A stretch of DNA of 64,000 nucleotides from Spirochaetota bacterium (GTDB lineage Bacteria; Spirochaetota; Leptospiria; Turneriellales; CBDBES01), in NCBI GenBank assembly GCA_965206985.1, contig CBDBLF010000021.1:38204-102203 (forward strand), read 5' to 3'. Made by a program: the position numbers and the translations under genes. The notes beneath the pieces are model-generated. The model did no database searches, was not told the origin of the DNA, and saw only the letters and a list, made by a program, of their open reading frames with translations. Below, piece by piece: positions 26,016 to 56,800 of the stretch (within the stretch, counting starts at the first letter, position 1; each line of letters begins with the position of its first letter).

Positions 26016-26334
26016 CTTTTGACCTTAAACCTGTTAACTTAGGTATAAGGTCTCGTCACTCAATTTTAAGATATTTTTTATTTTTTTCCATCAGCTCTTT
26101 GGTAGACAAATATGAGACTGGGAAGGAACTAGGTTTTAGTTCGTGGAGAAAACCTACTGAGTATTTCTCAATTAACAATCTGGCCAAATTATACTTTTTA
26201 TCATTATCTAATGATACAGGCTTACTTTCAATATTTTCACGTTCTAAAAATAACTCTTTAAAGCACCATAAAAAAAATATTTTGACCCAATTTTCTTAGT
26301 TTTCTCCCAGTCTTTTTTTTTCCTATCTTCAGCT

Positions 26335-27438
26335 CTAATTATAGGGATGGAGAATAGGATTGTACCCCCCTACGACCATTGGCATCTTTTGAAATAAATA
26401 GTCCAGTCGAAACGGTGGTAAATTTAATATTTGTTTGTCAATAGTTGTGCTTTCCTCTCGGATCAGCTGCCAGGGCGATTTATTCTCTTTGTAAGAATTT
26501 TTTCTTATTGAATTGAACATCAATAGATAGGAGCCAGCTTTGTTGAGAAAGTCTTCTCTTGAATTATACGTTTCATTCAGGTAAAGGTGATCCTCAATCA
26601 ATCTATGAGTCGTTTCAACATCAGACTGCCAAGTATGCGCTCCAGCAGGGATCGTCTGGTGTGGCACACCATAACTGGCTAATACTTTTGTAAACTCCGA
26701 ATCTCCTTTTTTATTCCAAGCACCAATAAACTCTGAGCCATTATCTGTTTGCCCTCTCGTATTATTTTTCTTTAAATCAACCCCTGATTTTACAAGATGA
26801 TCTAAAATTACCTCCATAAACAGACAAGAGTATGCCATATTATACTCATCTGCAAAAGCTAGAAATTGTAAGCCAGAAAAAACTTCTCTGAAGGTATATT
26901 GATATTTCGGTACAATATTTTCCTGAATATAAGGCCAAAGCTCAGGAATATCGTATAAATGCTTCGTATCTACGTCAAATTGCTTAAATAAACCCCATAA
27001 TTTCTTAATTTCACGCAAATTTTGCTTCGTTTTATGTTTTCTACGCTTTTTTTTCAAGAGTGCTTGCTCCCTCCACGCTCTGCGAATGGCCTTGACACTC
27101 AAGTCTAGTTGGTAAACATTCTTCAGTTCCTGAGCACCAAAGCCTCGACGTTTCTTTTTAAGAAAGCAAACATAAGCCTTTTCAAAGTCTGTGATTGCAT
27201 GTGGTGAGTAGTGTGGAGCGTGGCTCTTGTCTTCCAAGCCAACGTATTTCTCTGATTCAAACCTACGAAACCACTTTTTTACTGTTTTTACAGTCGTTTT
27301 AAACATTCTGGCTGTTGGCTTGAAACCATGCTTCTTGGCATAATGAACCATTTGCATTCTGTATAACTTTTTGTCTTTACTATTTCGCATTACTGCCGAA
27401 TACCTGTTTAGACAAATAACCTGAGAAGGGTGCTTCAT
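26335..27438 (-). CDS. IS481-like DDE transposase (367 aa)
   Basis: N-terminal HTH (ARMFKTTVKTVKKWFRRF); DVDTK, QTDNGSEF, VETTHR; stop codon lies in the target duplication. Confidence 0.88.
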   Translation of the reverse strand: MKHPSQVICLNRYSAVMRNSKDKKLYRMQMVHYAKKHGFKPTARMFKTTVKTVKKWFRRFESEKYVGLEDKSHAPHYSPHAITDFEKAYVCFLKKKRRGFGAQELKNVYQLDLSVKAIRRAWREQALLKKKRRKHKTKQNLREIKKLWGLFKQFDVDTKHLYDIPELWPYIQENIVPKYQYTFREVFSGLQFLAFADEYNMAYSCLFMEVILDHLVKSGVDLKKNNTRGQTDNGSEFIGAWNKKGDSEFTKVLASYGVPHQTIPAGAHTWQSDVETTHRLIEDHLYLNETYNSREDFLNKAGSYLLMFNSIRKNSYKENKSPWQLIREESTTIDKQILNLPPFRLDYLFQKMPMVVGGYNPILHPYN

Positions 27439-27603
27439 TAGGAACCTCTGTTTTATTTGATGATTTAACGTCGGCCTTTTGATGCACCTTTTTTAGGAAA
27501 ATGTCTTTCACTTGCTCTACCAGTAAACCCAAGCCTTTTGAACCAAATAACTTGATTTGAACCAATTCTGAACCAACTAATGATGGTCGTAGGGGGGTAC
27601 TAT

Positions 27604-29489
27604 GAGCTTGTGCGGGAACTAGGATTTTTCTTGCTTTTCTGTGTTCTTCTTTGATTATGTCTTATTATGAAACGATTTATGAAAAGTGATAGAGATCAAG
27701 TTATGCTGTTTTCGCATACTATAGCAGATAATTTAGAAGAAAATCACGAGGTTTATGCCTTTGCTGCCTTGTTAGATAAAATTCCTATGAAACCATTTCT
27801 TTCTAAGTACTCAAAAGAAGGGGGTCGGGCTTACCATCCGGTTATAATGCTGGGATGCCTTTTTTATGGCTTTCATCGTGGATGGAGAAGCAGCAGAGAA
27901 TTACAAAAAGCCTGTGAAGAGAACGACGCCATGCGTTATTTAGTTGGTGGTCATAAAGTAAAGTTTCGGTCTATTGCTGAATTCCGTGTTAATTTTGGTA
28001 AAGAAATTGGCGAAGTTTTTAATTACTCTGTATCTTTGCTATCCCACAAAAAGAAAAATATTGGTACTGATGTTAAGGTAGATGGAACTAAAATCAAAGC
28101 CAGTGCTGCTGACGATCAAACATACAAAAAGTCAGATTTAGAGGAACGTAAAAGAGCTATACAGCAAGAGATCTTAGAGTATCTACGCTCAGGTAGAGAA
28201 TTAGATATTGAGGAAGATAAACTATATGGTAAAGACAACAGTGGCTATGAGCTTAATCCTGAAGAGGTAGATACGATCATTGAGGAGTTTATTCGCTTAC
28301 AAAAAGCGAGTGAAAAGGCAAAGAGAGAGTCATTAAAAACAGCAGAAGGAAAGCAAAGTGAACCAGCCGAGTTTTCTACATCTGTTGAAAAAGATTCTTC
28401 AGAAACTATAGAAGGTACACAGGATATAGAAGCTCTAAAAACAGGAGAAAAAGAAGTTGAGGTCTTTTTAGAAGATACAACTAATTCTCATGCTAACGAG
28501 CCAGAATTATTGATAAATGAAGACCAGGCTGCAGAAGATAATGATTCTGTTATGCTTAGGAAAGCTCAAAAGTATGTTACGATCAGTAAAAGTCTGGAAG
28601 AGAATCAAGAGTCTGCTTCTGATTCTAAAATAAATCTTACTGATCCAGATGCTAAATTCATGAAACGGAATGGTAAAATTTCTCAAAGCTACAACATTCA
28701 AGTTACCTCATCAGAAGGCTATATTTTGGCAGCTGACATTGCTGAAGCTAATTCAGAAAATGATTTAGAGCAATTAGCTCCTACCCTTTCTAAAGCTGAG
28801 TCAAACACAGGGACCAGTATACAGACAGCTTCTGCAGATTCGGGTTACTTTCATTCAAGTGGTTTGGAATACCTGGATTCAAAAGGGATCAATGGTTTTA
28901 TACCTTCACCTGATCAGGTAGCCAAAGAAAGAAAAGGAGAAGAGGATTCAGGTTATGAAGCTCATCAGTTTAAATATGACGAGGATGATGATTCTTGGGT
29001 TTGCCCCGAGGGTAAAACCTTAGAATTTCATAATGAATCTGTGAAAGATAAAAAGAAATATACTCATTATCATGGTAAACCTCCTGACTGTGTCATTTGC
29101 CCTGCCAGAGAACAATGTTGTACGAGCGAAGAAGAGTTACGCAGAGGTTATCGCAAATTGTCAGTAGACTCTGGTTTTGCTTTAAAACATGAAATGATCA
29201 AGAAGATGAATTCAGAAGAAGCAAAGTCTTTCTATAAAAAGCGAGGTTCTGAAATTGAACCCATTTTTGGAATTTTGAAACAAGCCAAAAAGTTCAGAGA
29301 ATTCTTGCTCAGAGGCAGTAAAAAGGTTCAAATAGAGGTAAAAATCGCAGCTACAGCATTTAATTTTGGCAAAATGGTACGAGAACAACTTGCATAAACT
29401 ATAAATTCCTTGACATATTTGAAAAATGAGACTGACGCAGCAAATATCTCATAAAATGCACTGAAAAATCCTAGTTCCTGCACAAGCTC
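27604..29489 (+). mobile_element. IS1182-family IS, copy B, nested in the IS481-like IR
   Basis: 1886 bp; TSD CTAT at 27600-27603 / 29490-29493. Confidence 0.93.
27667..29397 (+). CDS. IS1182-family transposase
   Basis: Near-identical to 15184-16914. Confidence 0.93.
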   Translation: MKRFMKSDRDQVMLFSHTIADNLEENHEVYAFAALLDKIPMKPFLSKYSKEGGRAYHPVIMLGCLFYGFHRGWRSSRELQKACEENDAMRYLVGGHKVKFRSIAEFRVNFGKEIGEVFNYSVSLLSHKKKNIGTDVKVDGTKIKASAADDQTYKKSDLEERKRAIQQEILEYLRSGRELDIEEDKLYGKDNSGYELNPEEVDTIIEEFIRLQKASEKAKRESLKTAEGKQSEPAEFSTSVEKDSSETIEGTQDIEALKTGEKEVEVFLEDTTNSHANEPELLINEDQAAEDNDSVMLRKAQKYVTISKSLEENQESASDSKINLTDPDAKFMKRNGKISQSYNIQVTSSEGYILAADIAEANSENDLEQLAPTLSKAESNTGTSIQTASADSGYFHSSGLEYLDSKGINGFIPSPDQVAKERKGEEDSGYEAHQFKYDEDDDSWVCPEGKTLEFHNESVKDKKKYTHYHGKPPDCVICPAREQCCTSEEELRRGYRKLSVDSGFALKHEMIKKMNSEEAKSFYKKRGSEIEPIFGILKQAKKFREFLLRGSKKVQIEVKIAATAFNFGKMVREQLA

Positions 29490-29518
29490 CTATCATCCTT
29501 CTCTCTCCCACTTCAGCT

Positions 29519-30622
29519 CTAATTATAGGGATGGAGAATAGGATTGTACCCCCCTACGACCATTGGCATCTTTTGAAATAAATAGTCCAGTCGAAACGGT
29601 GGTAAATTTAATATTTGTTTGTCAATAGTTGTGCTTTCCTCTCGGATCAGCTGCCAGGGCGATTTATTCTCTTTGTAAGAATTTTTTCTTATTGAATTGA
29701 ACATCAATAGATAGGAGCCAGCTTTGTTGAGAAAGTCTTCTCTTGAATTATACGTTTCATTCAGGTAAAGGTGATCCTCAATCAATCTATGAGTCGTTTC
29801 AACATCAGACTGCCAAGTATGCGCTCCAGCAGGGATCGTCTGGTGTGGCACACCATAACTGGCTAATACTTTTGTAAACTCCGAATCTCCTTTTTTATTC
29901 CAAGCACCAATAAACTCTGAGCCATTATCTGTTTGCCCTCTCGTATTATTTTTCTTTAAATCAACCCCTGATTTTACAAGATGATCTAAAATTACCTCCA
30001 TAAACAGACAAGAGTATGCCATATTATACTCATCTGCAAAAGCTAGAAATTGTAAGCCAGAAAAAACTTCTCTGAAGGTATATTGATATTTCGGTACAAT
30101 ATTTTCCTGAATATAAGGCCAAAGCTCAGGAATATCGTATAAATGCTTCGTATCTACGTCAAATTGCTTAAATAAACCCCATAATTTCTTAATTTCACGC
30201 AAATTTTGCTTCGTTTTATGTTTTCTACGCTTTTTTTTCAAGAGTGCTTGCTCCCTCCACGCTCTGCGAATGGCCTTGACACTCAAGTCTAGTTGGTAAA
30301 CATTCTTCAGTTCCTGAGCACCAAAGCCTCGACGTTTCTTTTTAAGAAAGCAAACATAAGCCTTTTCAAAGTCTGTGATTGCATGTGGTGAGTAGTGTGG
30401 AGCGTGGCTCTTGTCTTCCAAGCCAACGTATTTCTCTGATTCAAACCTACGAAACCACTTTTTTACTGTTTTTACAGTCGTTTTAAACATTCTGGCTGTT
30501 GGCTTGAAACCATGCTTCTTGGCATAATGAACCATTTGCATTCTGTATAACTTTTTGTCTTTACTATTTCGCATTACTGCCGAATACCTGTTTAGACAAA
30601 TAACCTGAGAAGGGTGCTTCAT
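29519..30622 (-). CDS. IS481-like DDE transposase
   Basis: Protein identical to copy 1. Confidence 0.88.
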   Translation of the reverse strand: MKHPSQVICLNRYSAVMRNSKDKKLYRMQMVHYAKKHGFKPTARMFKTTVKTVKKWFRRFESEKYVGLEDKSHAPHYSPHAITDFEKAYVCFLKKKRRGFGAQELKNVYQLDLSVKAIRRAWREQALLKKKRRKHKTKQNLREIKKLWGLFKQFDVDTKHLYDIPELWPYIQENIVPKYQYTFREVFSGLQFLAFADEYNMAYSCLFMEVILDHLVKSGVDLKKNNTRGQTDNGSEFIGAWNKKGDSEFTKVLASYGVPHQTIPAGAHTWQSDVETTHRLIEDHLYLNETYNSREDFLNKAGSYLLMFNSIRKNSYKENKSPWQLIREESTTIDKQILNLPPFRLDYLFQKMPMVVGGYNPILHPYN

Positions 30623-30787
30623 TAGGAACCTCTGTTTTATTTGATGATTTAACGTCGGCCTTTTGATGCACCTTTTTTAGGAAAATGTCTTTCACTTGCT
30701 CTACCAGTAAACCCAAGCCTTTTGAACCAAATAACTTGATTTGAACCAATTCTGAACCAACTAATGATGGTCGTAGGGGGGTACTAT

Positions 30788-32673
30788 GAGGCTGTGCGGG
30801 AACTAGGATTTTTCTTGCTTTTCTGTGTTCTTCTTTGTTTATGTCTTATTATGAAACGATTTATGAAAAGTGATAGAGATCAAGTTATGCTGTTTTCGCA
30901 TACTATAGCAGACAATTTAGAAGAAAATCACGAGGTTTATGCCTTTGCTGCCTTGTTAGATAAAATTCCTATGAAACCATTTCTTTCTAAGTACTCAAAA
31001 GAAGGGGGTCGGGCTTACCATCCGGTTATAATGCTGGGATGCCTTTTTTATGGCTTTCATCGTGGATGGAGAAGCAGCAGAGAATTACAAAAAGCCTGTG
31101 AAGAGAACGACGCCATGCGTTATTTAGTTGGTGGTCATAAAGTAAAGTTTCGGTCTATTGCTGAATTCCGTGTTAATTTTGGTAAAGAAATTGGCGAAGT
31201 TTTTAATTACTCTGTATCTTTGCTATCCCACAAAAAGAAAAATATTGGTACTGATGTTAAGGTAGATGGAACTAAAATCAAAGCCAGTGCTGCTGACGAT
31301 CAAACATACAAAAAGTCAGATTTAGAGGAACGTAAAAGAGCTATACAGCAAGAGATCTTAGAGTATCTACGCTCAGGTAGAGAATTAGATATTGAGGAAG
31401 ATAAACTATATGGTAAAGACAACAGTGGCTATGAGCTTAATCCTGAAGAGGTAGATACGGTCATTGAGGAGTTTATTCGCTTACAAAAAGCGAGTGAAAA
31501 GGCAAAGAGAGAGTCATTAAAAACAGCAGAAGGAAAGCAAAGTGAACCAGCCGAGTTTTCTACATCTGTTGAAAAAGATTCTTCAGAAACTATGGAAGGT
31601 ACACAGGATATAGAAGCTCTAAAAACAGGAGAAAAAGAAGTTGAGGTCTTTTTAGAAGATACAACTAATTCTCATGCTAACGAGCCAGAATTATTGATAA
31701 ATGAAGACCAGGCTGCAGAGGATAATGATTCTGTTATGCTTAGGAAAGCTCAAAAGTATGTTACAATCAGTAAAAGTCTGGAAGAGAATCAAGAGTCTGC
31801 TTCTGATTCTAAAATAAATCTTACTGATCCAGATGCTAAATTCATGAAACGGAATGGTAAAATTTCTCAAAGCTACAACATTCAAGTTACCTCATCAGAA
31901 GGCTATATTTTGGCAGCTGACATTGCTGAAGCTAATTCAGAAAATGATTTAGAGCAATTAGCTCCTACCCTTTCTAAAGCTGAGTCAAACACAGGGACCA
32001 GTATACGGACAGCTTCTGCAGATTCGGGTTACTTTCATTCAAGTGGTTTGGAATACCTGGATTCAAAAGGGATCAATGGTTTTATACCTTCACCTGATCA
32101 GGTAGCCAAAGAAAGAAAAGGAGAAGAGGGTTCAGGTTATGAAGCTCATCAGTTTAAATATGACGAGGATGATGATTCTTGGGTTTGCCCCGAGGGTAAA
32201 ACCTTAGAATTTCATAATGAATCTGTGAAAGATAAAAAGAAATATACTCATTATCATGGTAAACCTCCTGACTGTGTCATTTGCCCTGCCAGAGAACAAT
32301 GTTGTACGAGCGAAGAAGAGTTACGCAGAGGTTATCGCAAATTGTCAGTAGACTCTGGTTTTGCTTTAAAACATGAAATGATCAAGAAGATGAATTCAGA
32401 AGAAGCAAAGTCTTTCTATAAAAAGCGAGGTTCTGAAATTGAACCCATTTTTGGAATTTTGAAACAAGCCAAAAAGTTCAGAGAATTCTTGCTCAGAGGC
32501 AGTAAAAAGGTTCAAATAGAGGTAAAAATCGCAGCTACAGCATTTAATTTTGGCAAAATGGTACGAGAACAACTTGCATAAACTATAAATTCCTTGACAT
32601 ATTTGAAAAATGAGACTGACGCAGCAAATATCTCATAAAATGCACTGAAAAATCCTAGTTCCTGCACAAGCTC
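30788..32673 (+). mobile_element. IS1182-family IS, copy C, nested in the IS481-like IR
   Basis: 1886 bp; TSD CTAT at 30784-30787 / 32674-32677; variant left end GAGGCTGTGCGGGAAC. Confidence 0.93.
30851..32581 (+). CDS. IS1182-family transposase
   Basis: ATG at 30851; private substitutions DTVIEE, ETMEG, SIRTAS, EEGSG. Confidence 0.93.
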   Translation: MKRFMKSDRDQVMLFSHTIADNLEENHEVYAFAALLDKIPMKPFLSKYSKEGGRAYHPVIMLGCLFYGFHRGWRSSRELQKACEENDAMRYLVGGHKVKFRSIAEFRVNFGKEIGEVFNYSVSLLSHKKKNIGTDVKVDGTKIKASAADDQTYKKSDLEERKRAIQQEILEYLRSGRELDIEEDKLYGKDNSGYELNPEEVDTVIEEFIRLQKASEKAKRESLKTAEGKQSEPAEFSTSVEKDSSETMEGTQDIEALKTGEKEVEVFLEDTTNSHANEPELLINEDQAAEDNDSVMLRKAQKYVTISKSLEENQESASDSKINLTDPDAKFMKRNGKISQSYNIQVTSSEGYILAADIAEANSENDLEQLAPTLSKAESNTGTSIRTASADSGYFHSSGLEYLDSKGINGFIPSPDQVAKERKGEEGSGYEAHQFKYDEDDDSWVCPEGKTLEFHNESVKDKKKYTHYHGKPPDCVICPAREQCCTSEEELRRGYRKLSVDSGFALKHEMIKKMNSEEAKSFYKKRGSEIEPIFGILKQAKKFREFLLRGSKKVQIEVKIAATAFNFGKMVREQLA

Positions 32674-32701
32674 CTATCATCCTTCTCTCTCCCATTCAGC
32701 T

Positions 32702-33805
32702 CTAATTATAGGGATGGAGAATAGGATTGTACCCCCCTACGACCATTGGCATCTTTTGAAATAAATAGTCCAGTCGAAACGGTGGTAAATTTAATATTTG
32801 TTTGTCAATAGTTGTGCTTTCCTCTCGGATCAGCTGCCAGGGCGATTTATTCTCTTTGTAAGAATTTTTTCTTATTGAATTGAACATCAATAGATAGGAG
32901 CCAGCTTTGTTGAGAAAGTCTTCTCTTGAATTATACGTTTCATTCAGGTAAAGGTGATCCTCAATCAATCTATGAGTCGTTTCAACATCAGACTGCCAAG
33001 TATGCGCTCCAGCAGGGATCGTCTGGTGTGGCACACCATAACTGGCTAATACTTTTGTAAACTCCGAATCTCCTTTTTTATTCCAAGCACCAATAAACTC
33101 TGAGCCATTATCTGTTTGCCCTCTCGTATTATTTTTCTTTAAATCAACCCCTGATTTTACAAGATGATCTAAAATTACCTCCATAAACAGACAAGAGTAT
33201 GCCATATTATACTCATCTGCAAAAGCTAGAAATTGTAAGCCAGAAAAAACTTCTCTGAAGGTATATTGATATTTCGGTACAATATTTTCCTGAATATAAG
33301 GCCAAAGCTCAGGAATATCGTATAAATGCTTCGTATCTACGTCAAATTGCTTAAATAAACCCCATAATTTCTTAATTTCACGCAAATTTTGCTTCGTTTT
33401 ATGTTTTCTACGCTTTTTTTTCAAGAGTGCTTGCTCCCTCCACGCTCTGCGAATGGCCTTGACACTCAAGTCTAGTTGGTAAACATTCTTCAGTTCCTGA
33501 GCACCAAAGCCTCGACGTTTCTTTTTAAGAAAGCAAACATAAGCCTTTTCAAAGTCTGTGATTGCATGTGGTGAGTAGTGTGGAGCGTGGCTCTTGTCTT
33601 CCAAGCCAACGTATTTCTCTGATTCAAACCTACGAAACCACTTTTTTACTGTTTTTACAGTCGTTTTAAACATTCTGGCTGTTGGCTTGAAACCATGCTT
33701 CTTGGCATAATGAACCATTTGCATTCTGTATAACTTTTTGTCTTTACTATTTCGCATTACTGCCGAATACCTGTTTAGACAAATAACCTGAGAAGGGTGC
33801 TTCAT
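32702..33805 (-). CDS. IS481-like DDE transposase
   Basis: Protein identical to copies 1 and 2. Confidence 0.88.
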   Translation of the reverse strand: MKHPSQVICLNRYSAVMRNSKDKKLYRMQMVHYAKKHGFKPTARMFKTTVKTVKKWFRRFESEKYVGLEDKSHAPHYSPHAITDFEKAYVCFLKKKRRGFGAQELKNVYQLDLSVKAIRRAWREQALLKKKRRKHKTKQNLREIKKLWGLFKQFDVDTKHLYDIPELWPYIQENIVPKYQYTFREVFSGLQFLAFADEYNMAYSCLFMEVILDHLVKSGVDLKKNNTRGQTDNGSEFIGAWNKKGDSEFTKVLASYGVPHQTIPAGAHTWQSDVETTHRLIEDHLYLNETYNSREDFLNKAGSYLLMFNSIRKNSYKENKSPWQLIREESTTIDKQILNLPPFRLDYLFQKMPMVVGGYNPILHPYN

Positions 33806-33987
33806 TAGGAACCTCTGTTTTATTTGATGATTTAACGTCGGCCTTTTGATGCACCTTTTTTAGGAAAATGTCTTTCACTTGCTCTACCAGTAAACCCAAG
33901 CCTTTTGAACCAAATAACTTGATTTGAACCAATTCTGAACCAACTAATGATGGTCGTAGGGGGGTACTATCATCCTTCTCTCTCCCA
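32709..33987 (-). mobile_element. IS481-like element copy 3 (intact, 1279 bp)
   Basis: Uninterrupted TIRs; TTCAGCTCTAATTA at 32695-32708 and 33988-34001. Confidence 0.92.
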
Positions 33988-34006
33988 TTCAGCTCTAATT
34001 ATAAAC

Positions 34007-34035
34007 TTGACACAATGATGTTATATTTATCTCTG
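34007..34035 (+). promoter_or_regulatory. Probable 16S rRNA promoter
   Basis: Perfect TTGACA at 34007-34012, about 130 bp upstream of 16S; -10 not clearly assignable. Confidence 0.55.
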
Positions 34036-34059
34036 GCTGTACCTGAGTAAGTAGTGATC

Positions 34060-34094
34060 AGAGGATTTTACTTCTTTGGGTAGCAGACAGCGAC
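34060..34094 (+). other. 16S leader arm of the rRNA processing stem (pairs with 35816-35850)
   Basis: AGAGGATTTTACTTCTTTGGGTAGCAGACAGCGAC is largely complementary (with G-U pairs) to trailer GTTGCTGTCTGTTACCGAGAGAAGTAAAATTTTCT. Confidence 0.75.
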
Positions 34095-34141
34095 GTTAGT
34101 TTATGTTTAATATTGATCTTTAGTTTGAGGTCAAACAATCT

Positions 34142-35673
<1,532 letters not shown>

Positions 35674-35904
35674 AAAAGGAGTAAGCAATGGTTGGTCTTT
35701 AGATTATTTTTGACTGATGGTTGCCAGTTGGCTTAAGCTTAACCAATTTTATTGGTTCTGTTTATGATGTCTGCTCTTGAGTGATCAAGGGCGACATTTT
35801 AGTGAGCATGAAAAAGTTGCTGTCTGTTACCGAGAGAAGTAAAATTTTCTTTTAGAAAGAGGTAGATTAATTTTTGCTGGTAAATGACTGATGGAGATTG
35901 TCTG

Positions 35905-36876
35905 TTAGGTACCCTTTGAAAGATAATTTCGAATGTAGTCATTAACTCCTCTTTCGAGCGACCACTTCGCCTGACTCAAACCTTGGTCTTGAGCTTTCTT
36001 CATTTCTGCCTCGGTGAAATATTGGTATTGTTCACGGATATTCGCAGGGATTTCGATCCATTCAATGATTCGCTTTTTATCTATGGCTGTAAAAACAGCA
36101 TCTGCTAGGTCAAGCCAAGTTCGTGCTCGACCAAACCCCATGTTGTAGACTCCTGATTGTATATTGGGTTGTTTATATATCTCCCATATCCAATGAGCAA
36201 TATCTTCAATGTAAACAAAATCTCGCATTTGTCTGCCATCTTCATATTTTGGATTGTAAGATCTAAATAGCTTTAAGCGACCTGTCTCACTGACCTGATG
36301 AAATGCCTGGTAGACCAGACTCGCCATATTACCTTTGTGTGACTCAGAGTAACCAAATACATTAAAAAACCGAAGCCCATACCACCGTTTTTCAAGAAGT
36401 GGAGGATGATTTCGTGATAAAACCCACTCATCAAAATCTAATTTAGATTGCCCATATGGGTTTAGTGCAACATAGTTTGTGGGACTGTGGTTATCGTCAA
36501 AGCCTTTCTTCCCATCTCCATAGATTGCCGCACTGCTCGCATAGATAAAAGGAATCTGGTGTTCATCACACCACAAGTACAAGTTTTTTGTGTAGAGAGT
36601 GTTATTTTTATACAAAAATTCTTTATTTTGTTCTGTGGTATCTGTGCACGCACCCATGTGAAAAATACATTCAATCGCTTTCTCGTTTCCTTTTAGAAAT
36701 TCCAATAAAGCTTCGCTTTTGACAAATTTTGTGTAAGAGACTTCCCGCAATGGCTCTTGTCTCTCTTGAGGAGTTACCGAATCAACACAAATGATCGTAG
36801 AGCTTGCTTCTTCTTTATTTATTTTTTTAACCAAGGAACTCCCAATAAAACCATTCCCCCCTGTCACGACAAACAT
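35905..36876 (-). CDS. hldD: ADP-L-glycero-D-manno-heptose 6-epimerase
   Basis: TGGNGFIGS, YASSAAIYG, YGQSK, LRFFNVFG..ESHKGNMAS, QYQYFTEA. Confidence 0.93.
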   Translation of the reverse strand: MFVVTGGNGFIGSSLVKKINKEEASSTIICVDSVTPQERQEPLREVSYTKFVKSEALLEFLKGNEKAIECIFHMGACTDTTEQNKEFLYKNNTLYTKNLYLWCDEHQIPFIYASSAAIYGDGKKGFDDNHSPTNYVALNPYGQSKLDFDEWVLSRNHPPLLEKRWYGLRFFNVFGYSESHKGNMASLVYQAFHQVSETGRLKLFRSYNPKYEDGRQMRDFVYIEDIAHWIWEIYKQPNIQSGVYNMGFGRARTWLDLADAVFTAIDKKRIIEWIEIPANIREQYQYFTEAEMKKAQDQGLSQAKWSLERGVNDYIRNYLSKGT

Positions 36877-36980
36877 TTGCCCATTTTATGTTAAAGAGTC
36901 TAATTGTAGAATGCTATTTACAAAACAGGTATCTTTTTTATCATGGTATGCTTGCTCTTAAATTAGGTGGGTAATAAAAA

Positions 36981-38306
36981 GTGAAATTAGGAAAGCCATT
37001 AGCAATTTGTTCGCCAAAAAGGTTACCGTTTGCGCAAATTGGCAAGGCTTTAGCCAAGTATTCGGCACCACACTTGGGTCTAAAAGTAGCAAAGTCTGTC
37101 ATCGAGACATCAAAGCTTTCTTTGGATAGCTTTGATGGTATTGTCACAGGAGAGGGTTTCCCTAATGCCCCAAATTCTGCTAGAGTGGTCGCGAATCTGT
37201 TACGTCTGGACCACAGCACCACGGCTGTTACTGTAAATAATAATTGTGTCTCAGGTATGGAGGGGGTTACTGAAGCTTCGCGTCGCATTTCAATGGGCGA
37301 AGGAGATATTTTTTTAGTCATCGGTGAAGAGTCACAAACATCCATGCCTTTTATCATACAAGGTGCTAGACAAAACAAAAAAACGGCAACCCTCGATAAA
37401 CTAAAGCCACTTTTACCAAATGACCTTCCCGAAGGAGTCGATATTAGAGATATGCTAGAAGACGGTCTTGGTGATGGAGAAACCAGCTTTGGGATGCAGG
37501 TTACAGCTGAAATACTTGCCCAAAATTATTCTATAAAGCGAGAAACTACCGATCATTTTGCTCATCAAAGTTTCAAAAGAGCATATGAGGCATTTGACCA
37601 AGGTTTTTATGATGAACATATTATTCCCGTTGACGATGGTTCCGGTGGTGAGTTAAAAGCCGATGAAGCTGTTCTTCTAAGAAAAGGCCTTGTCGAGAAC
37701 CCTGGTCGTATGGCACGTGCTATGCTCCTCTTTGAAAATCAATATTTAAAATTTGACGAATTTAAAGAAAAATATAAAAAATACTTGAAGAAAACTCATG
37801 GACCCACCATCACTATTTTCTCTGCTAGCCCACGCTCCGATGGTGCAGCTGGTCTGATTCTAACCACAGTGGAAAAAGCAAAGAGCCTCGGTCTTAAAAT
37901 TGATGCCTTGATCACCGGCTGGAAGAACAAAGGTGTTGATCCAAACCTAATGGGAATTGGTCAAGCGGTGGCTACGTTGGATCTTCTAAGTGATATGAAT
38001 ATGAAACCAGACGACCTTGATTATATAGAAATTCATGAGGCGTTTGCCGCAACTGCTGTTGCTACCCTAGAAGAAATAAAAATAAAGTCAGGTTACGATT
38101 GGCAGAAAAAATTTGAAGACAAGAAAATTAATCCTCATGGTGGTTCCATTGCAATCGGTCATCCTTTTGGAGCAACAGGTGTGCGTCTTGCCATGAATGC
38201 AATCATGAATTTCCATCAAGATGCCGATGCGAACAAAGTATTGATTACGGCGTGCGCTCACGGTGGTGTAGCTGGTGCGATGATGATTGAGCGGCCTGCC
38301 GCTTGA
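36981..38306 (+). CDS. Thiolase (acetyl-CoA C-acyltransferase)
   Basis: NNNCVSG, DGAA, EIHEAFA, GGSIAIGHPFGATG, CAHGG. Confidence 0.93.
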   Translation: MKLGKPLAICSPKRLPFAQIGKALAKYSAPHLGLKVAKSVIETSKLSLDSFDGIVTGEGFPNAPNSARVVANLLRLDHSTTAVTVNNNCVSGMEGVTEASRRISMGEGDIFLVIGEESQTSMPFIIQGARQNKKTATLDKLKPLLPNDLPEGVDIRDMLEDGLGDGETSFGMQVTAEILAQNYSIKRETTDHFAHQSFKRAYEAFDQGFYDEHIIPVDDGSGGELKADEAVLLRKGLVENPGRMARAMLLFENQYLKFDEFKEKYKKYLKKTHGPTITIFSASPRSDGAAGLILTTVEKAKSLGLKIDALITGWKNKGVDPNLMGIGQAVATLDLLSDMNMKPDDLDYIEIHEAFAATAVATLEEIKIKSGYDWQKKFEDKKINPHGGSIAIGHPFGATGVRLAMNAIMNFHQDADANKVLITACAHGGVAGAMMIERPAA

Positions 38307-39180
38307 TATGCTACCAAAAAAAACTTTGCTTGTAGAAGAAAAAATTCAACTAAGTTGTCAAGACTGTGCGGGCAGAGGGTATCTTTCCTTTCCTACCGGT
38401 GGTGTCGGCTATAAGAGCCACATTGATTTGTCTGTTTGTCATTGCATTGAGTCTAAGTGTTTTTGTGAAAAAAAACCTCCCTACATGTGGTATGACGATA
38501 AGAATTCAGGGCTGAAGGAGTGTTCATGTCGTCAAGTTAGGCTCATTCTTAGTGAAATTAAACGACTCTACAAATTATCAAGTATACCCCCTAAATATCG
38601 ATTTCGTAAAATTCATGAATTTGAGATCGCTCACGAAAACCCATCTATCGCACGATGCTTGGCTCAAGCCTATGACAATGCCGAACATTTTCTAGAAGAA
38701 ATTTACAAGCAAAAAACTACTAGAGAAGGCTTTGTACGGGGTTGGTATTTCCATGGGTTGCCTGGGTCAGGGAAGACAATGCTCGCTTGTCTTATATTGA
38801 ATGAGGCAATCCTTCGTTATCAATACGGAGTACGTTACGTTAAAGTAGCGAGAGACTTCTTAGATCAGATAAGAGCATCGTATAACCAAGAGTCAGGTTT
38901 TTATGGGAAAGGCGATAACATCATCAACGAATTATATCAGATTGATCTCCTCGTACTGGATGATTTTGGAGTACAGCAAGATACTGAATGGGAAAAAAGA
39001 ATGCTCTATAATTTAATTGATACTCGCTACGAGTATGCAAAGACAACAATCATTACATCCAACTTGGAGCCGAAAGAGTTGCGAACACTTTTTGGTGGTA
39101 GACTTTTATCTCGAATTAAAGAGATGGCACAAATTCAAGATTTTGTAAGCCCTGACTATAGAGAAAAATTTGCTCAATAA
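38287..39180 (+). CDS. DnaC/IstB-like AAA+ ATPase with Cys-rich N-terminus
   Basis: GLPGSGKT, LLVLDDFG, TIITSN, GRLLSRI; several Cys pairs. Confidence 0.8.
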   Translation: MSGLPLDMLPKKTLLVEEKIQLSCQDCAGRGYLSFPTGGVGYKSHIDLSVCHCIESKCFCEKKPPYMWYDDKNSGLKECSCRQVRLILSEIKRLYKLSSIPPKYRFRKIHEFEIAHENPSIARCLAQAYDNAEHFLEEIYKQKTTREGFVRGWYFHGLPGSGKTMLACLILNEAILRYQYGVRYVKVARDFLDQIRASYNQESGFYGKGDNIINELYQIDLLVLDDFGVQQDTEWEKRMLYNLIDTRYEYAKTTIITSNLEPKELRTLFGGRLLSRIKEMAQIQDFVSPDYREKFAQ

Positions 39181-40000
39181 AAACTCCCCAATCGGTATTT
39201 TTGATAGCGGTATTGGTGGGCTTACCGTGTTAAAAGCGATCCGTTCTTTGATGCCTCACGAAGATATTATTTATTTCGGGGATACTGCACGAGTTCCCTA
39301 TGGGTCCAAGTCAAAACAAATAGTAATCAAATATTCGGAAGAAATATTAACTTTTCTTTTAAGTCAACATGTAAAGTGCATTGTTGTCGCTTGCAATACT
39401 GCTTCCTCTTATGCTATGGAATCGCTAAAGAATAAAACAAAAACTCCTATTATGGGGGTGATTGAGCCGGGAGTAGATGCTCTTATCCAAAAAATTGGCA
39501 ATTCTCACGTGGCCGCTTTAGTCGCAACAAATGGAACCATAAAAAGCAAGACATACGAATTGATTCTTCGAGAAAAAAGAAAGGATATCACACTGAAATC
39601 AAAGGCATGTCCTCTTTTTGTCCCATTGGTCGAAGAAAACTTGGTTGATCACAAAATTACAAAAGAAACGATACGCTTTTACCTTCATGACTTCCATGAA
39701 GCAAAGATTAATCATATTATCTTAGGCTGTACCCACTACCCTCACTTGAAAAATACAATTGCGAGAGTATATCCAAATTTTAAGTTGATTGACTCGTCAC
39801 AAGAAGCTTCGATAACACTCAAAATCAAGCTAAAAAGACAAAACCTTTTAACAGATCAAAGCAAAAAAGGTAAAATTAAAATATATGTTTCTGACTCAAT
39901 AGAAAATTTTGATAAAAATAAAGATTTTTTTTTAGGAGAAGAAAGCTATTCTCTTGAAGGGGAAATTTTTAATTGTGTTGCCTCAGTTGATACAGCATAA
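39170..40000 (+). CDS. murI: Glutamate racemase
   Basis: FDSGIGGLT, PYGSK, ACNTAS, GCTHYP. Confidence 0.96.
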   Translation: MLNKNSPIGIFDSGIGGLTVLKAIRSLMPHEDIIYFGDTARVPYGSKSKQIVIKYSEEILTFLLSQHVKCIVVACNTASSYAMESLKNKTKTPIMGVIEPGVDALIQKIGNSHVAALVATNGTIKSKTYELILREKRKDITLKSKACPLFVPLVEENLVDHKITKETIRFYLHDFHEAKINHIILGCTHYPHLKNTIARVYPNFKLIDSSQEASITLKIKLKRQNLLTDQSKKGKIKIYVSDSIENFDKNKDFFLGEESYSLEGEIFNCVASVDTA

Positions 40001-40008
40001 AAAAAAAT

Positions 40009-40908
40009 ATGCTCATGATGCGTCATTCAATTGATTTTCGTCTCTCAAATACTCCAATGCCATTTGCTCAAGAAGTTTATTCTAGGTACTCTGGTAAACT
40101 AAACGCACTTCATCCAGAAGGTTTTTCAAGTAAAAACTTTATTCAACTCGACTACCTTCCTAGTGCAAAAGAATGGGAGAGCATTTTTCATATGTTTCCT
40201 TTTAAAAATTTACTGGAGTACTCGTTTTATTTTGCTAAAATCTCTGTTCATCTATCAGAAAAGCAAAAGACAGAATTAATGATCGCTTATGGAATTCAAG
40301 CCAATGTGGCAAAAGAAAGAGAACTCCTTCAACTTGCTGATTTAAGTTCCCCACTACAATCTTTATTTGTGAATAGAAATATTCCCCCGCGTTTGTTGTT
40401 TCCTCTAAAGTTTTTTAATTATAGGGTAATAGAGAGATTAGCCGAAAACCTTTCGGGCACTTATTTAAAAAATAATGTGGTAAAAGAGATTGTGGAGCTG
40501 TTTATCGATCTCACTCCCAGCATGCAAGAAGCTTTCCTACAAGAAGTGAATCAGGCAAAAAAAAATGCCTCAAAAGATGGTTTCTCTTTTTTAAATGAAC
40601 GTTTTAGAAATATTCTCTACTCTTTACGTTTCCCCACCAGAGAAAAAATAAAAAGTGAAATGTATAATTTGCTGAAACCAGCCCGCGCACAGCTAAAAAA
40701 TATCAAAATTAACTATGATGATACTTTTGAAAGAGATTACCTGAGCCTGGAAGTAAGTATACGGTCTAATTCAGAAATTTATGAACTCTCAAATATTACA
40801 AAAAATCAAGATGTTGTCGAGGCACTCAAACAAGCCTTGACAGTTTTAAAAGACCCTGACCAAACAAAAAATCCTCGGACCTACAAACCAAAAGACAGAC
40901 CACGATGA
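40009..40908 (+). CDS. Hypothetical protein
   Basis: 299-aa ORF in the operon; no recognised motif. Confidence 0.65.
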   Translation: MLMMRHSIDFRLSNTPMPFAQEVYSRYSGKLNALHPEGFSSKNFIQLDYLPSAKEWESIFHMFPFKNLLEYSFYFAKISVHLSEKQKTELMIAYGIQANVAKERELLQLADLSSPLQSLFVNRNIPPRLLFPLKFFNYRVIERLAENLSGTYLKNNVVKEIVELFIDLTPSMQEAFLQEVNQAKKNASKDGFSFLNERFRNILYSLRFPTREKIKSEMYNLLKPARAQLKNIKINYDDTFERDYLSLEVSIRSNSEIYELSNITKNQDVVEALKQALTVLKDPDQTKNPRTYKPKDRPR

Positions 40909-40929
40909 TACTAAAACATAATGCCAAAA

Positions 40930-41047
<118 letters not shown>

Positions 41048-41248: not shown

Positions 41249-42355
41249 TTAATAATGATAGGGATGGAGAATAGGATTGTACCCCCCTACGACCATTGGC
41301 ATCTTTTGAAATAAATAGTCCAGTCGAAACGGTGGTAAATTTAATATTTGTTTGTCAATAGTTGTGCTTTCCTCTCGGATCAGCTGCCAGGGCGATTTAT
41401 TCTCTTTGTAAGAATTTTTTCTTATTGAATTGAACATCAATAGATAGGAGCCAGCTTTGTTGAGAAAGTCTTCTCTTGAATTATACGTTTCATTCAGGTA
41501 AAGGTGATCCTCAATCAATCTATGAGTCGTTTCAACATCAGACTGCCAAGTATGCGCTCCAGCAGGGATCGTCTGGTGTGGCACACCATAACTGGCTAAT
41601 ACTTTTGTAAACTCCGAATCTCCTTTTTTATTCCAAGCACCAATAAACTCTGAGCCATTATCTGTTTGCCCTCTCGTATTATTTTTCTTTAAATCAACCC
41701 CTGATTTTACAAGATGATCTAAAATTACCTCCATAAACAGACAAGAGTATGCCATATTATACTCATCTGCAAAAGCTAGAAATTGTAAGCCAGAAAAAAC
41801 TTCTCTGAAGGTATATTGATATTTCGGTACAATATTTTCCTGAATATAAGGCCAAAGCTCAGGAATATCGTATAAATGCTTCGTATCTACGTCAAATTGC
41901 TTAAATAAACCCCATAATTTCTTAATTTCACGCAAATTTTGCTTCGTTTTATGTTTTCTACGCTTTTTTTTCAAGAGTGCTTGCTCCCTCCACGCTCTGC
42001 GAATGGCCTTGACACTCAAGTCTAGTTGGTAAACATTCTTCAGTTCCTGAGCACCAAAGCCTCGACGTTTCTTTTTAAGAAAGCAAACATAAGCCTTTTC
42101 AAAGTCTGTGATTGCATGTGGTGAGTAGTGTGGAGCGTGGCTCTTGTCTTCCAAGCCAACGTATTTCTCTGATTCAAACCTACGAAACCACTTTTTTACT
42201 GTTTTTACAGTCGTTTTAAACATTCTGGCTGTTGGCTTGAAACCATGCTTCTTGGCATAATGAACCATTTGCATTCTGTATAACTTTTTGTCTTTACTAT
42301 TTCGCATTACTGCCGAATACCTGTTTAGACAAATAACCTGAGAAGGGTGCTTCAT
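41249..42355 (-). CDS. IS481-like DDE transposase (368 aa; C-terminus set by target)
   Basis: Identical to the other copies except ending HPYHY rather than HPYN. Confidence 0.88.
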   Translation of the reverse strand: MKHPSQVICLNRYSAVMRNSKDKKLYRMQMVHYAKKHGFKPTARMFKTTVKTVKKWFRRFESEKYVGLEDKSHAPHYSPHAITDFEKAYVCFLKKKRRGFGAQELKNVYQLDLSVKAIRRAWREQALLKKKRRKHKTKQNLREIKKLWGLFKQFDVDTKHLYDIPELWPYIQENIVPKYQYTFREVFSGLQFLAFADEYNMAYSCLFMEVILDHLVKSGVDLKKNNTRGQTDNGSEFIGAWNKKGDSEFTKVLASYGVPHQTIPAGAHTWQSDVETTHRLIEDHLYLNETYNSREDFLNKAGSYLLMFNSIRKNSYKENKSPWQLIREESTTIDKQILNLPPFRLDYLFQKMPMVVGGYNPILHPYHY

Positions 42356-42537
42356 TAGGAACCTCTGTTTTATTTGATGATTTAACGTCGGCCTTTTGAT
42401 GCACCTTTTTTAGGAAAATGTCTTTCACTTGCTCTACCAGTAAACCCAAGCCTTTTGAACCAAATAACTTGATTTGAACCAATTCTGAACCAACTAATGA
42501 TGGTCGTAGGGGGGTACTATCATCCTTCTCTCTCCCA
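41259..42537 (-). mobile_element. IS481-like element copy 4 (intact, 1279 bp)
   Basis: Same TIRs; TSD ATTCTTAATAATGA at 41245-41258 / 42538-42551. Confidence 0.93.
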
Positions 42538-55463: not shown

Positions 55464-55549
55464 TATTTTGGGTCGTGTCATATTTAATCAAAGTTTCCAA
55501 TTAAAAAAGGAATTGACTTATCTCCCTTAAATTAAGGTTATGTCTCATT

Positions 55550-55927
55550 ATGAACAAAAGAAAATATACCTTTGATACAAGTGGTTTTAGCTGTCAAAAT
55601 ACAGACTGCCATAAGTATCATAAGGTAAATGAAGGAAATGTGCGCTTTGCTTATATGTCTGGTAAGTACAAACAAATAGCCTATTTAAAGTGCACCGCTT
55701 GTGGTAGATGCTTTTCAGAGAATAAAGGCACTATTTTTTTTCGTCGCAAGAAAAGCAAAGAAACCATTACTCGGGTATTACAAAACACAGTTGAGGGCTG
55801 TGGCATTAGAGCTACCGGAAGAGTCTTTGGTATCAGCAAGGATACAGTTCTTGCTTGGGTTAAAGCAGCAGGTGAAGATTCACTAAAAGTTGAAAAAAAA
55901 TATATACAAAAACCTGTCTTTCAATGA
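55550..55927 (+). CDS. IS1 InsA-like zinc finger/HTH
   Basis: CQNTDC...CTACGRCF; GIRATGRVFGISKDTVLAW. Confidence 0.85.
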   Translation: MNKRKYTFDTSGFSCQNTDCHKYHKVNEGNVRFAYMSGKYKQIAYLKCTACGRCFSENKGTIFFRRKKSKETITRVLQNTVEGCGIRATGRVFGISKDTVLAWVKAAGEDSLKVEKKYIQKPVFQ

Positions 55928-56654
55928 AATTCAATTAGACGAGCATTGGGGTTTTGTCTTTAAAAAACAATACAATCTATCAGAGACTGAGCGATTAAGT
56001 GATGAAATAGGGGATATCTGGACTTTTACTGCAGTATTGCCTGTAGAAAAGCTCATTTTAGCGCATATAACAGGCAAGAGGACCTCAGTGAATGCTAGAA
56101 AGTTACTGACCAAGGTAAAAACAAGAAGTAAGCCAAAGAGGGAAGATAAATTCTTGATTACTTCTGATGGATATGAGGGATATAGTGATGCCATTCTTTC
56201 AGTTTATGGTAAATTTGACTCAATGACTAGAAAGCTTCAATCACCCAAATCTCTATGTTATGGGCAAATAATTAAGAGAATAGAAAAAGGGAGATGTAAG
56301 GAAGTTGACAAATCTCTAATCTTTGGTGATCAAAAGCTACTAGATGAATATATTGCAAACTCTTCAGTAAGTCATCAGATAAACACCTTTGCTGTAGAAA
56401 GGAATAATTTGACTCTTCGCCAACACAATCATAGAATAGAGCGTAAAAGTCAGGGTTTTTCAAAAAAATTCAAATATATGCAGGGGCATAATTCTTTTGT
56501 TGCTAATTATTACAATTTCTGCCTTCCACATTCAAGTCTAGCTGAGTATGAGGGAGGAAAACCAATTCAAATCACCCCAGCAATGGCTACAGAAATGACG
56601 AATCATAAGTGGTCTATACAAGAATTATTCATCGCAAATAGAAACTTTGATTAA
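55890..56654 (+). CDS. IS1 InsB-like DDE domain
   Basis: QLDEHWGFV, TSDGYEGY, VERNNLTLRQ, GFSKK, TPAMA. Confidence 0.85.
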   Translation: MKKNIYKNLSFNEIQLDEHWGFVFKKQYNLSETERLSDEIGDIWTFTAVLPVEKLILAHITGKRTSVNARKLLTKVKTRSKPKREDKFLITSDGYEGYSDAILSVYGKFDSMTRKLQSPKSLCYGQIIKRIEKGRCKEVDKSLIFGDQKLLDEYIANSSVSHQINTFAVERNNLTLRQHNHRIERKSQGFSKKFKYMQGHNSFVANYYNFCLPHSSLAEYEGGKPIQITPAMATEMTNHKWSIQELFIANRNFD

Positions 56655-56800
56655 ATATGACACGACCATATTTTGACGGACTATCGTCCTTGACGGAGAG
56701 TCCAGGTGACAGCTAATAATACCTCCAAAAAAATGGATTGTATCGGGTTTGCTATTTCATTGGTTTTCGAAACGTCGTTAAAGCCCGGAGAGACAAAAAA

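Follow-up and report, generated by a model that had tools for sequence, protein, structure and literature searches.

A head-to-tail array of three insertion sequences beside a -35-type hexamer upstream of a 16S rRNA gene, and the target preference of their clade

The array and its surroundings

The DNA analysed here, referred to as the window, is a stretch of 64,000 nucleotides from a Spirochaetota bacterium (assembly GCA_965206985.1, contig CBDBLF010000021.1, positions 38,204 to 102,203 of the forward strand). It contains a head-to-tail array of an insertion sequence (IS), IS-A, that stops 4 bp 5' of the hexamer TTGACA upstream of a 16S rRNA gene. The array is confirmed as real in the assembly. 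It consists of three IS-A copies in the same orientation, lying between copies of one target sequence. Copies 1 and 2 are each interrupted by a second element of 1886 bp, IS-B, and copy 3 is uninterrupted at 1278 bp. A preliminary description of the locus was right about the common orientation and the target copies that part the elements but missed the nested IS-B, and the repeat units are unequal (3184, 3183 and 1293 bp by the repeat finder).

The 14-mer TTCAGCTCTAATTA has exactly four matches on the + strand of the window (26328, 29512, 32695 and 33988). The number expected by chance is 0.09, and four or more matches were reached in 0 of 100 shuffles. The base C stands 5' of the 14-mer only at the first two target copies (26327 and 29511), as had been described. 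The spacers, given earlier as 15 and 14 bp, required correction. Comparison of the genomic copies showed that the base before AGGGATGG, the T that follows the 14-mer in the array, varies (T, A, C, G) and is thus a flank base and not part of the element. IS-A is therefore 1278 bp long, AGGGATGG...CTCTCCCA, and the spacers and target copies are 16 (C+15), 15 and 15 bp. The right edge of the array reads TTCAGCTCTAATTAT-AAAC-TTGACA. Across the three copies the IS-A parts show 100% identity. Unit 1 differs from unit 2 by 10 substitutions, all of them within IS-B, and by the C.

The genome assembly comprises 2.69 Mb in 33 contigs. Collection of the elements by BLAST gave 87 IS-A segments, mostly 100% identical, and 109 IS-B segments; the assembled copy number is about 75 for IS-A and more than 80 for IS-B. 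IS-A was not found in three other searched genomes of the same family. The target-site duplication (TSD) at 63 promoter-side ends of IS-A is 15 bp in 42 and 16 bp in 8, with none in 13. Duplications of 15/16 bp are thus the normal footprint of the element, missed earlier.

The IS-A transposase is a protein of 367 aa encoded on the minus strand, with HTH_28 (4.9e-7) and HTH_32 domains and a marginal match to LZ_Tnp_IS481 (22.7 bits, cut-off 22.2). The best family is the NCBIfam IS481 model NF033577, to which residues 27-325 align over model positions 2-283 of 284 with 95.3 bits (E = 4.3e-27), under the cut-off of 224 bits. The Pfam rve match is only marginal (E = 0.053). The 19 homologues compared all retain D157, D232 (part of DNGSEF) and E275/E282, and the AlphaFold (AF2) model, with a predicted local distance difference test (pLDDT) value of 79, has its best structural matches in IstA (8b4h), retroviral integrases and TnsB. 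IS-A is a DDE (Asp-Asp-Glu) element near, but not safely inside, the IS481 family, and the earlier label "IS481-like" stands, with the model aligned over its full length. The termini of IS-A and its relatives are TGGGAG...CATCCCT, not TGT...ACA. Agreement with the IS1202 type, of which the ISTde1 subgroup makes 15-17 bp duplications, is limited to TSD length: the NCBIfam ISNCY_2 model, a possible stand-in for IS1202, gives 19 bits over residues 42-155, and the ends are TGGGAG/AGGGAT. The open reading frame (ORF) of the transposase has no stop codon inside the element. It runs past the distal tip (...CATCCCT) into the flank, and each copy thus gets a C-terminal tail of its own, with open frames of 383-447 aa; the consensus of the family likewise ends at the tip (...IPHP). 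At E <= 1e-10 there are 972 homologues of the transposase, none named beyond "transposase".

IS-B belongs to the IS1182 family, its transposase scoring 331.7 bits with NF033551 (cut-off 270). It has inverted repeats of about 30 bp that are 93% complementary, and a TSD of 4 bp (CTAT). In the array it sits 17 bp from the IS-A tip. This hotspot is the CTAT at IS-A position 1258-1261 (window 27600-27603 and 30784-30787), where IS-B splits 16 of the 79 promoter-side ends of IS-A in the genome. The full-length copies inserted there are 7 in + and 4 in - orientation. Among the 45 full-length IS-B copies, array copy 1 is identical to C1-40028 and C7+17258, and array copy 2 to C29+55567. IS-B is also present in the ends of other IS types.

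The preliminary description did not recognise the rRNA promoter context of the array. The TTGACA ends 130 nt before the start of the 16S rRNA gene, apparently the genome's only one, whose leader has a single match there. It also ends 44 nt before the conserved leader sequence ATCAGAGGATTTTAC, both here and in G001, the nearest relative found, which has cTTGACA-N16-TATCAT at that position. The upstream region of what would be the sole 16S rRNA promoter is replaced, beyond about -55, by 7.7 kb of IS DNA. The 16S rRNA was the only RNA family reported for 33900-41000, with no 23S, 5S or other RNA in the next 5.3 kb, and the rRNA genes seem to be unlinked. An epimerase gene (35905-36876, opposite strand) follows the 16S rRNA gene. 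Coordinates of the features are collected in Table 1.

Table 1. Features of the array and of its right flank, with genomic positions of a further element (IS-D) discussed below
Feature	Position	Strand	Remark
Leftmost target copy, 16 bp, C+TTCAGCTCTAATTAT	26327..26342	+	Native flank, probably duplicated by the first insertion
IS-A copy 1 (probably the oldest)	26343..29510	-	Parts 26343-27603 and 29490-29510, split by IS-B
IS-A copy 1 transposase ORF	26335-27438	-	Stop codon in flank
IS-B copy 1, IS1182 family, inserted in the inverted repeat on the TTGAC side of IS-A copy 1	27604..29489	+	TSD CTAT
IS-B copy 1 transposase ORF, 576 aa	27667-29397	+	
Spacer 1, 16-bp target copy including the C	29511..29526	+	
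IS-A copy 2	29527..32694	-	Parts 29527-30787 and 32674-32694, split by IS-B
IS-A copy 2 transposase ORF	29519-30622	-	
IS-B copy 2, other lineage than copy 1 (10 differences), same CTAT site	30788..32673	+	
IS-B copy 2 ORF, 605 aa	30764-32581	+	
Spacer 2, 15-bp target copy	32695..32709	+	
IS-A copy 3 (probably the youngest), intact, 1278 bp	32710..33987	-	Inverted repeats 32710-32747 and 33950-33987
IS-A copy 3 transposase ORF	32702-33805	-	
Rightmost target copy, 15 bp	33988..34002	+	
AAAC + TTGACA	34003..34012	+	4-bp gap, then -35-type hexamer (34007-34012)
16S rRNA gene	34142..35673	+	
IS-D, genome positions	C7:139339, C11:308185, C14:249066, C25:10771 and others		

To the left of the array, 26103-26131 and 26297-26325 form a 29-nt inverted-repeat pair (72% complementary) that encloses about 220 bp. 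This stretch is unique in the genome; its arms resemble IS1182-type ends, and it may be a decayed miniature inverted-repeat transposable element (MITE).

Insertion upstream of -35 hexamers

The position of the array relative to TTGACA follows a general preference of IS-A. Exact TTGAC lies 4 bp past the TSD at 34 of 52 unique IS-A targets, at offset 19 in 29 of them and offset 20 in 5; the background frequency is 0.0013 per position. Among all 52 targets the consensus base is found 52 (T), 49 (T), 41 (G), 44 (A) and 46 (C) times at the five successive motif positions, and a C precedes the motif in 28. A separate count of unique flanks gave TTGAC at 19/20 in 36 of 55 on the side where the transposase starts and in 2 of 67 on the opposite side. 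The same flank count showed no such phasing for IS-B. The fourth IS-A of the window (41260-42537) has a 15-bp TSD followed by TTTC-TGTAC, a degenerate motif.

The targets lie upstream of genes more often than TTGAC in general. At 21 of the 34 targets an ORF of 120 aa or more, running in the same direction, begins 20-131 nt downstream; the same is true of 13.6% of 2000 random TTGAC sites and of 27% of 564 intergenic ones. Since an IS truncates any ORF that it enters, interruption of ORFs was assessed on empty sites rebuilt in silico. An open frame of at least 150 codons spans 11 of 48 such sites, against 76% of 600 random TTGAC sites.

Relatives of the transposase with 46-61% identity occur in other phyla. 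Their sites from metagenome-assembled genomes (MAGs) and metagenomes were pooled to 59 unique sites and aligned on the motif. The Acidobacteriota MAG copies have GTCAA-N4-TSD15/16 at the transposase-side tip in 12 of 12 cases, 11 of them exact. Among 80 metagenome loci, 56 have a recognisable end and 49 of these enough flank; exact GTCAA is at the expected distance in 24 of the 49. Of the pooled sites, 48 have TTG and 33 the full TTGAC; the motif offset is 19 in 41 sites and 20 in 18. The alignment has in addition a -10 box at positions 23-28 (T 37, A 41, T 35 of 59). TAnnnT at a spacer of 16-18 was found at 41 of 59 sites, against 0-10 of 59 in eight other spacer windows, and 13 of 19 sites that match TTGAC at only 3-4 positions have the -10 box as well. 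The flanks span 8% to 64% G+C, and the pattern is therefore not a matter of their base composition. TSDs of 15 bp were found in 9 and of 16 bp in 3 of the 41 relatives' copies tested, and none was found in 29. In two more distant relatives of 38-40% identity, L047 and L049, one has TTGAC in the opposite sense and one is without TSD.

The -10 box at the right spacing in the relatives indicates that the clade targets sigma70-type promoters. Judged from its insertion sites, the clade enters about 4 bp before the -35 hexamer of predicted sigma70-type promoters and points away from the gene.

A set of observations speaks against this reading. Exact TTGAC is not present at 18 of the 52 targets, and the 11 reconstructed sites spanned by open frames may lie in ORFs. 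The -10 box is weak in the genome itself, where 6 of 34 targets have TAnnnT at spacer 16-18 and the background is 9.5%. At the array, a strict promoter scan of 33900-34200 found no sigma70 promoter, and the sequence in the place of a -10 box would be TATCTC or ATCTCT. A graded -10 score of the genome's own targets gave p ~0.02, and TA is found in the -10 window of 19 of 43 own-genome sites, against 6-12 in other windows. In the available part of a study of Sinorhizobium the sigma70 -10 region is described as poorly conserved (PMC3616915); the same might apply to this host.

How the site is found can be read in two ways. It is quite possible, if somewhat short of probable, that the transposase reads TTGAC directly through its N-terminal helix-turn-helix, and that the promoter context comes from selection against insertions in genes. 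The phasing is precise to 1 bp and the orientation strict, the transposase has the HTH_28 and HTH_32 domains, and within this genome the last two bases of TTGAC are well conserved (A in 44 and C in 46 of 52 targets), in contrast to the weak -10 box. Against direct readout stands the -10 box at correct spacing in 41 of 59 relatives' sites, including the 13 of 19 with an imperfect -35. Insertions at intergenic TTGAC outside promoters should also be harmless under it, yet they seem to be rare, and the IS-A inverted repeats contain no TTGAC-like word.

The same motif is also approached by other elements. IS-D is an IS1-family element of 1197 bp with two ORFs and about 110-120 copies, one of them in the window (55471-56667). 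It is unrelated to IS-A. Of the unique flanks of its two ends, 17 of 106 and 14 of 110 carry TTGAC at a distance of 21-22 nt. Elements ending ...TTGGTTTCTATA, which have a third kind of end, show the motif 18-20 nt away in 13 of 28 free flanks. One of these elements is a 530-bp MITE (C22:458366-458896), and in 11 cases IS-A lies exactly one duplication beyond them. The end of another IS is found 14-18 bp before the distal end of IS-A in at least 24 of 78 cases, four "IS-E" cases being excluded. "IS-E" had been considered as an IS end and was rejected; it is probably the native upstream sequence of a paralogous gene family. This family forms a cluster at locus L062 (G000:C22:134000-153500) of genes for proteins of 571-785 aa, without a family match save a weak GLUG motif. 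The paralogues share the upstream sequence ...CAGCTCTAACTTTTTTTTGTTGAC, and IS-A lies in the promoter of nearly every copy.

Phasing of unrelated transposases to TTGAC, together with the -10 box of the relatives, is the main argument for polymerase or DNA shape as the target, and it suggests a second reading. Tentatively, elements of the clade may dock on promoter-bound RNA polymerase holoenzyme and integrate at about -40, with an intact resident end conferring immunity and arrays needing split ends. Putative docking partners are sigma70 region 4, the alpha C-terminal domains, or a DNA bend made by them. A complex prediction with the transposase alignment and RpoD 570-656, run without controls, gave a score of 0.00 (mark 0.32), which speaks neither for nor against docking. 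Under the polymerase-docking reading, promoter-upstream DNA would be a general landing pad for transposable elements.

Growth of the array and the state of the resident end

The array probably arose by three successive, independent transpositions of IS-A into one site. In the proposed mechanism, one strand transfer would take place 4 bp before TTGAC and the second 15 or 16 bp farther upstream, producing the 15/16-bp TSD. With TTGAC lying outside the TSD, each insertion would rebuild an identical target beside the motif, and the newcomer would enter on the promoter side. First, IS-A would insert with a 16-bp stagger (C+15). Second, IS-B would enter the promoter-side inverted repeat of copy 1. 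Third, another IS-A would insert with a 15-bp stagger. Fourth, a different IS-B would enter copy 2 at the same spot, and fifth, the last IS-A would insert, again with a 15-bp stagger. Since only the target copy beside AAAC-TTGAC stays valid, new copies should enter on the right, the rightmost being the youngest. A 16-bp event and then two 15-bp events give exactly C15-IS-C15-IS-15-IS-15; a third event of 16 bp would leave CCCAATTCAG, which is not seen. The events thus appear to have followed this order. Polarised growth of the array, proposed earlier, is supported, and so is repeated insertion at one site; what directs it is the TTGAC 4 bp beyond the TSD (34 of 52 targets), not a resident end against which the newcomer comes to lie flush. 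Circles carrying flank DNA, also proposed, are not required by any of the observations.

Some points tell against this account. The identical IS-A parts allow no dating by divergence, and the order comes from the geometry alone. Logan contigs were placed on 32500-34300, and they break at every IS end; the three-copy count comes from the assembly alone. IS-A::IS-B composites might also have arrived as units.

This last possibility, in which copies 1 and 2 came as ready-made 3.17-kb IS-A::IS-B elements with IS-B a mere passenger, is unlikely. The identical position of IS-B in 16 of 79 IS-A ends would fit it, as would the haplotypes shared by several of these IS-B copies (for example C11-655640 and C14-153597). 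However, IS-B occupies the hotspot in both orientations (7 + and 4 -), and its haplotypes are scattered among free-standing copies, which favours repeated independent hits. In a composite, moreover, the terminal 21 bp (CTAT + the 17-bp tip) are cut off from the inner inverted repeat, and such an element could probably not be mobilised. Ready-made composites also give no account of the finding that 6 of 6 internal ends are split while 0 of 63 intact ends are internal.

Tandem amplification is very unlikely. One IS-A::IS-B would have been duplicated by unequal crossing-over or replication slippage. Later on, IS-B would have undergone gene conversion and been lost from copy 3, and a 1-bp indel would have arisen, which makes at least 3 extra events. 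The 100% identity of the three IS-A parts and the exact same CTAT in both IS-B insertions agree with it, and gene conversion is possible with about 75 copies of IS-A and more than 80 of IS-B. Yet the 10 substitutions are confined to IS-B (1886 bp), and the ~1280 bp of IS-A have none. The two IS-B copies differ from each other and each is identical to a different copy elsewhere, and the units are therefore not duplicates of each other. The extra C is the native base expected of a 16-bp TSD, as seen at 8 of 50 other TSD-bearing copies, and the N4-TTGAC geometry, present at 34 of 52 sites and in other phyla too, would be left unexplained. The preliminary description had likewise set simple unequal crossing-over aside on the unequal spacers, and the IS-B differences bear it out.

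An assembly artefact, with identical ISs mis-joined or over-expanded at a locus of fewer copies, is just as improbable: more than 70 identical IS-A copies in 33 contigs make a hard assembly, and the internal junctions are without read-level support, but a spurious expansion would repeat one unit, whereas these units are distinguishable (two IS-B haplotypes, IS-B present or absent, spacers of 16 against 15 bp), the spacers match IS-A's own 15/16-bp footprint, four other loci have arrays under the same rule, and the right junction is found in contigs of runs X9 and X10. These two runs are one sample, probably the source of the assembly, and their contigs support the right junction only (33974-34300). 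The ratio of IS-A depth to unique depth is 1243/21 (~59) in X9 and 1453/20.5 (~71) in X10, not above the ~75 assembled copies. The unique flank is thinly covered in runs X11 and X12. Contigs of X12, which is labelled as another organism (organism B), contain IS-A at a depth of ~2-8 with one G>T at 33030, and the unique flank is not among them.

The arrays of the genome follow a rule. A survey of the genomic copies for tandem arrays, as suggested in the preliminary description, gave six junctions at five loci, two of them at C21 and one each at C7, C14, C22 and C29. The last two have the same spacer sequence and different IS-B haplotypes. A second IS-A is present at 15-16 bp after 6 of 16 ends split by IS-B and after 0 of 63 intact ends (Fisher p = 2.9e-5), a distribution that does not fit flush insertion at a resident end. 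The copy adjoining TTGAC is intact in 4 of 5 arrays. An intact resident end thus appears to block re-use of the site by IS-A, either as target immunity or because abutted intact ends are unstable, and splitting of that end by IS-B would remove the block and let the array grow. Against this it has to be considered that the blocking is a correlation over 6 junctions, and that a long-read assembler might collapse perfect tandems, although the depth ratios of X9 and X10 given above do not rise above the number assembled. The site is open to other elements, with an IS1-family end 6 bp from one intact IS-A tip. For IS-D itself, seven intact head-to-tail pairs with 8-9-bp spacers were found.

Significance and relation to known systems

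The array as such is explained; of wider interest are the targeting rule and the immunity that may go with it. If the rule is true, it would account for the piles of tandem and mixed ISs in front of genes in IS-rich genomes. It would also allow promoters to be marked from sequence only in uncultured bacteria, each copy of the clade pointing at one, and would provide a compact tool for inserting DNA near promoters with a single protein. Whether simple ISs have target immunity would become testable. If docking on polymerase is true, the clade would correspond in bacteria to Ty3 at RNA polymerase III promoters. A full-text literature search, covering sources other than subscription journals, supplements and ISfinder/TnPedia notes, found no IS phased to the -35 of ordinary sigma70 promoters.

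Head-to-tail dimers are formed by IS30, IS21, IS3/IS911 and IS2. Their abutted ends, with spacers of 1-3 bp, arise from circle or dimer formation and are highly reactive. The array resembles these dimers in its same-orientation copies and in the facing of ends across a short spacer. It differs in that the spacers are full 15/16-bp TSDs and in that every internal junction is disabled by IS-B. Reactivity of abutted ends of the IS30/IS911 type could explain why no intact IS-A tandems are found.

Targeting to a fixed site is known from Ty3 and Ty1, which integrate at RNA polymerase III promoters through a TFIIIB tether, and from Tn7, which is directed to attTn7 by TnsD. By analogy, IS-A would share with them integration at a fixed distance from a conserved site that spares genes. 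They are, however, eukaryotic retroelements or a multi-protein transposon, whereas IS-A is a one-gene IS and its tether is putative. Gene-sparing, site-specific ISs are known at Xer sites, repetitive extragenic palindromic (REP) elements and attTn7.

Among the nearest known elements are those of an IS481 lineage for which 15/16-bp duplications are known, including the eukaryotic IS481EU (PMC10045372, in the available text). IS-A is like this lineage in its single transposase with N-terminal helix-turn-helix, leucine zipper and DDE/RNase-H core, in the 15/16-bp TSD, which falls within the 4 to about 15/16 bp known for the IS481 family, and in its size of about 1.3 kb. It is unlike it in the model score (95 against 224 bits), the marginal rve match, the TGGGAG...CATCCCT ends and an ORF that leaves the element. 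According to the accessible parts of two sources, TGT termini are the rule for IS481/IS1202 (10.1101/2022.12.17.520857, PMC10045372). The available text of PMC10045372 mentions no promoter or -35 targeting, and "target specificity" has 0 occurrences in it.

A close parallel in behaviour is the ISAba32 subgroup of IS1202. As far as the accessible text of 10.1101/2022.12.17.520857 goes, these elements insert orientation-specifically beside XerCD sites (xrs/dif) and leave the site intact, and tandem copies arise by successive insertion, for example four ISKpn21 parted by the same sequence. They differ from IS-A in that the landmark is a Xer site and not a promoter, in a TSD of 5-6 bp and in the transposase family (ISNCY_2 gives only 19 bits with IS-A), and the same text describes no dependence on a broken resident end. 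A "safe haven" role is discussed there for the subgroup (10.1101/2022.12.17.520857). As a working analogy, IS-A may be said to have such a haven, with its fixed distance and orientation to a host motif that survives the insertion.

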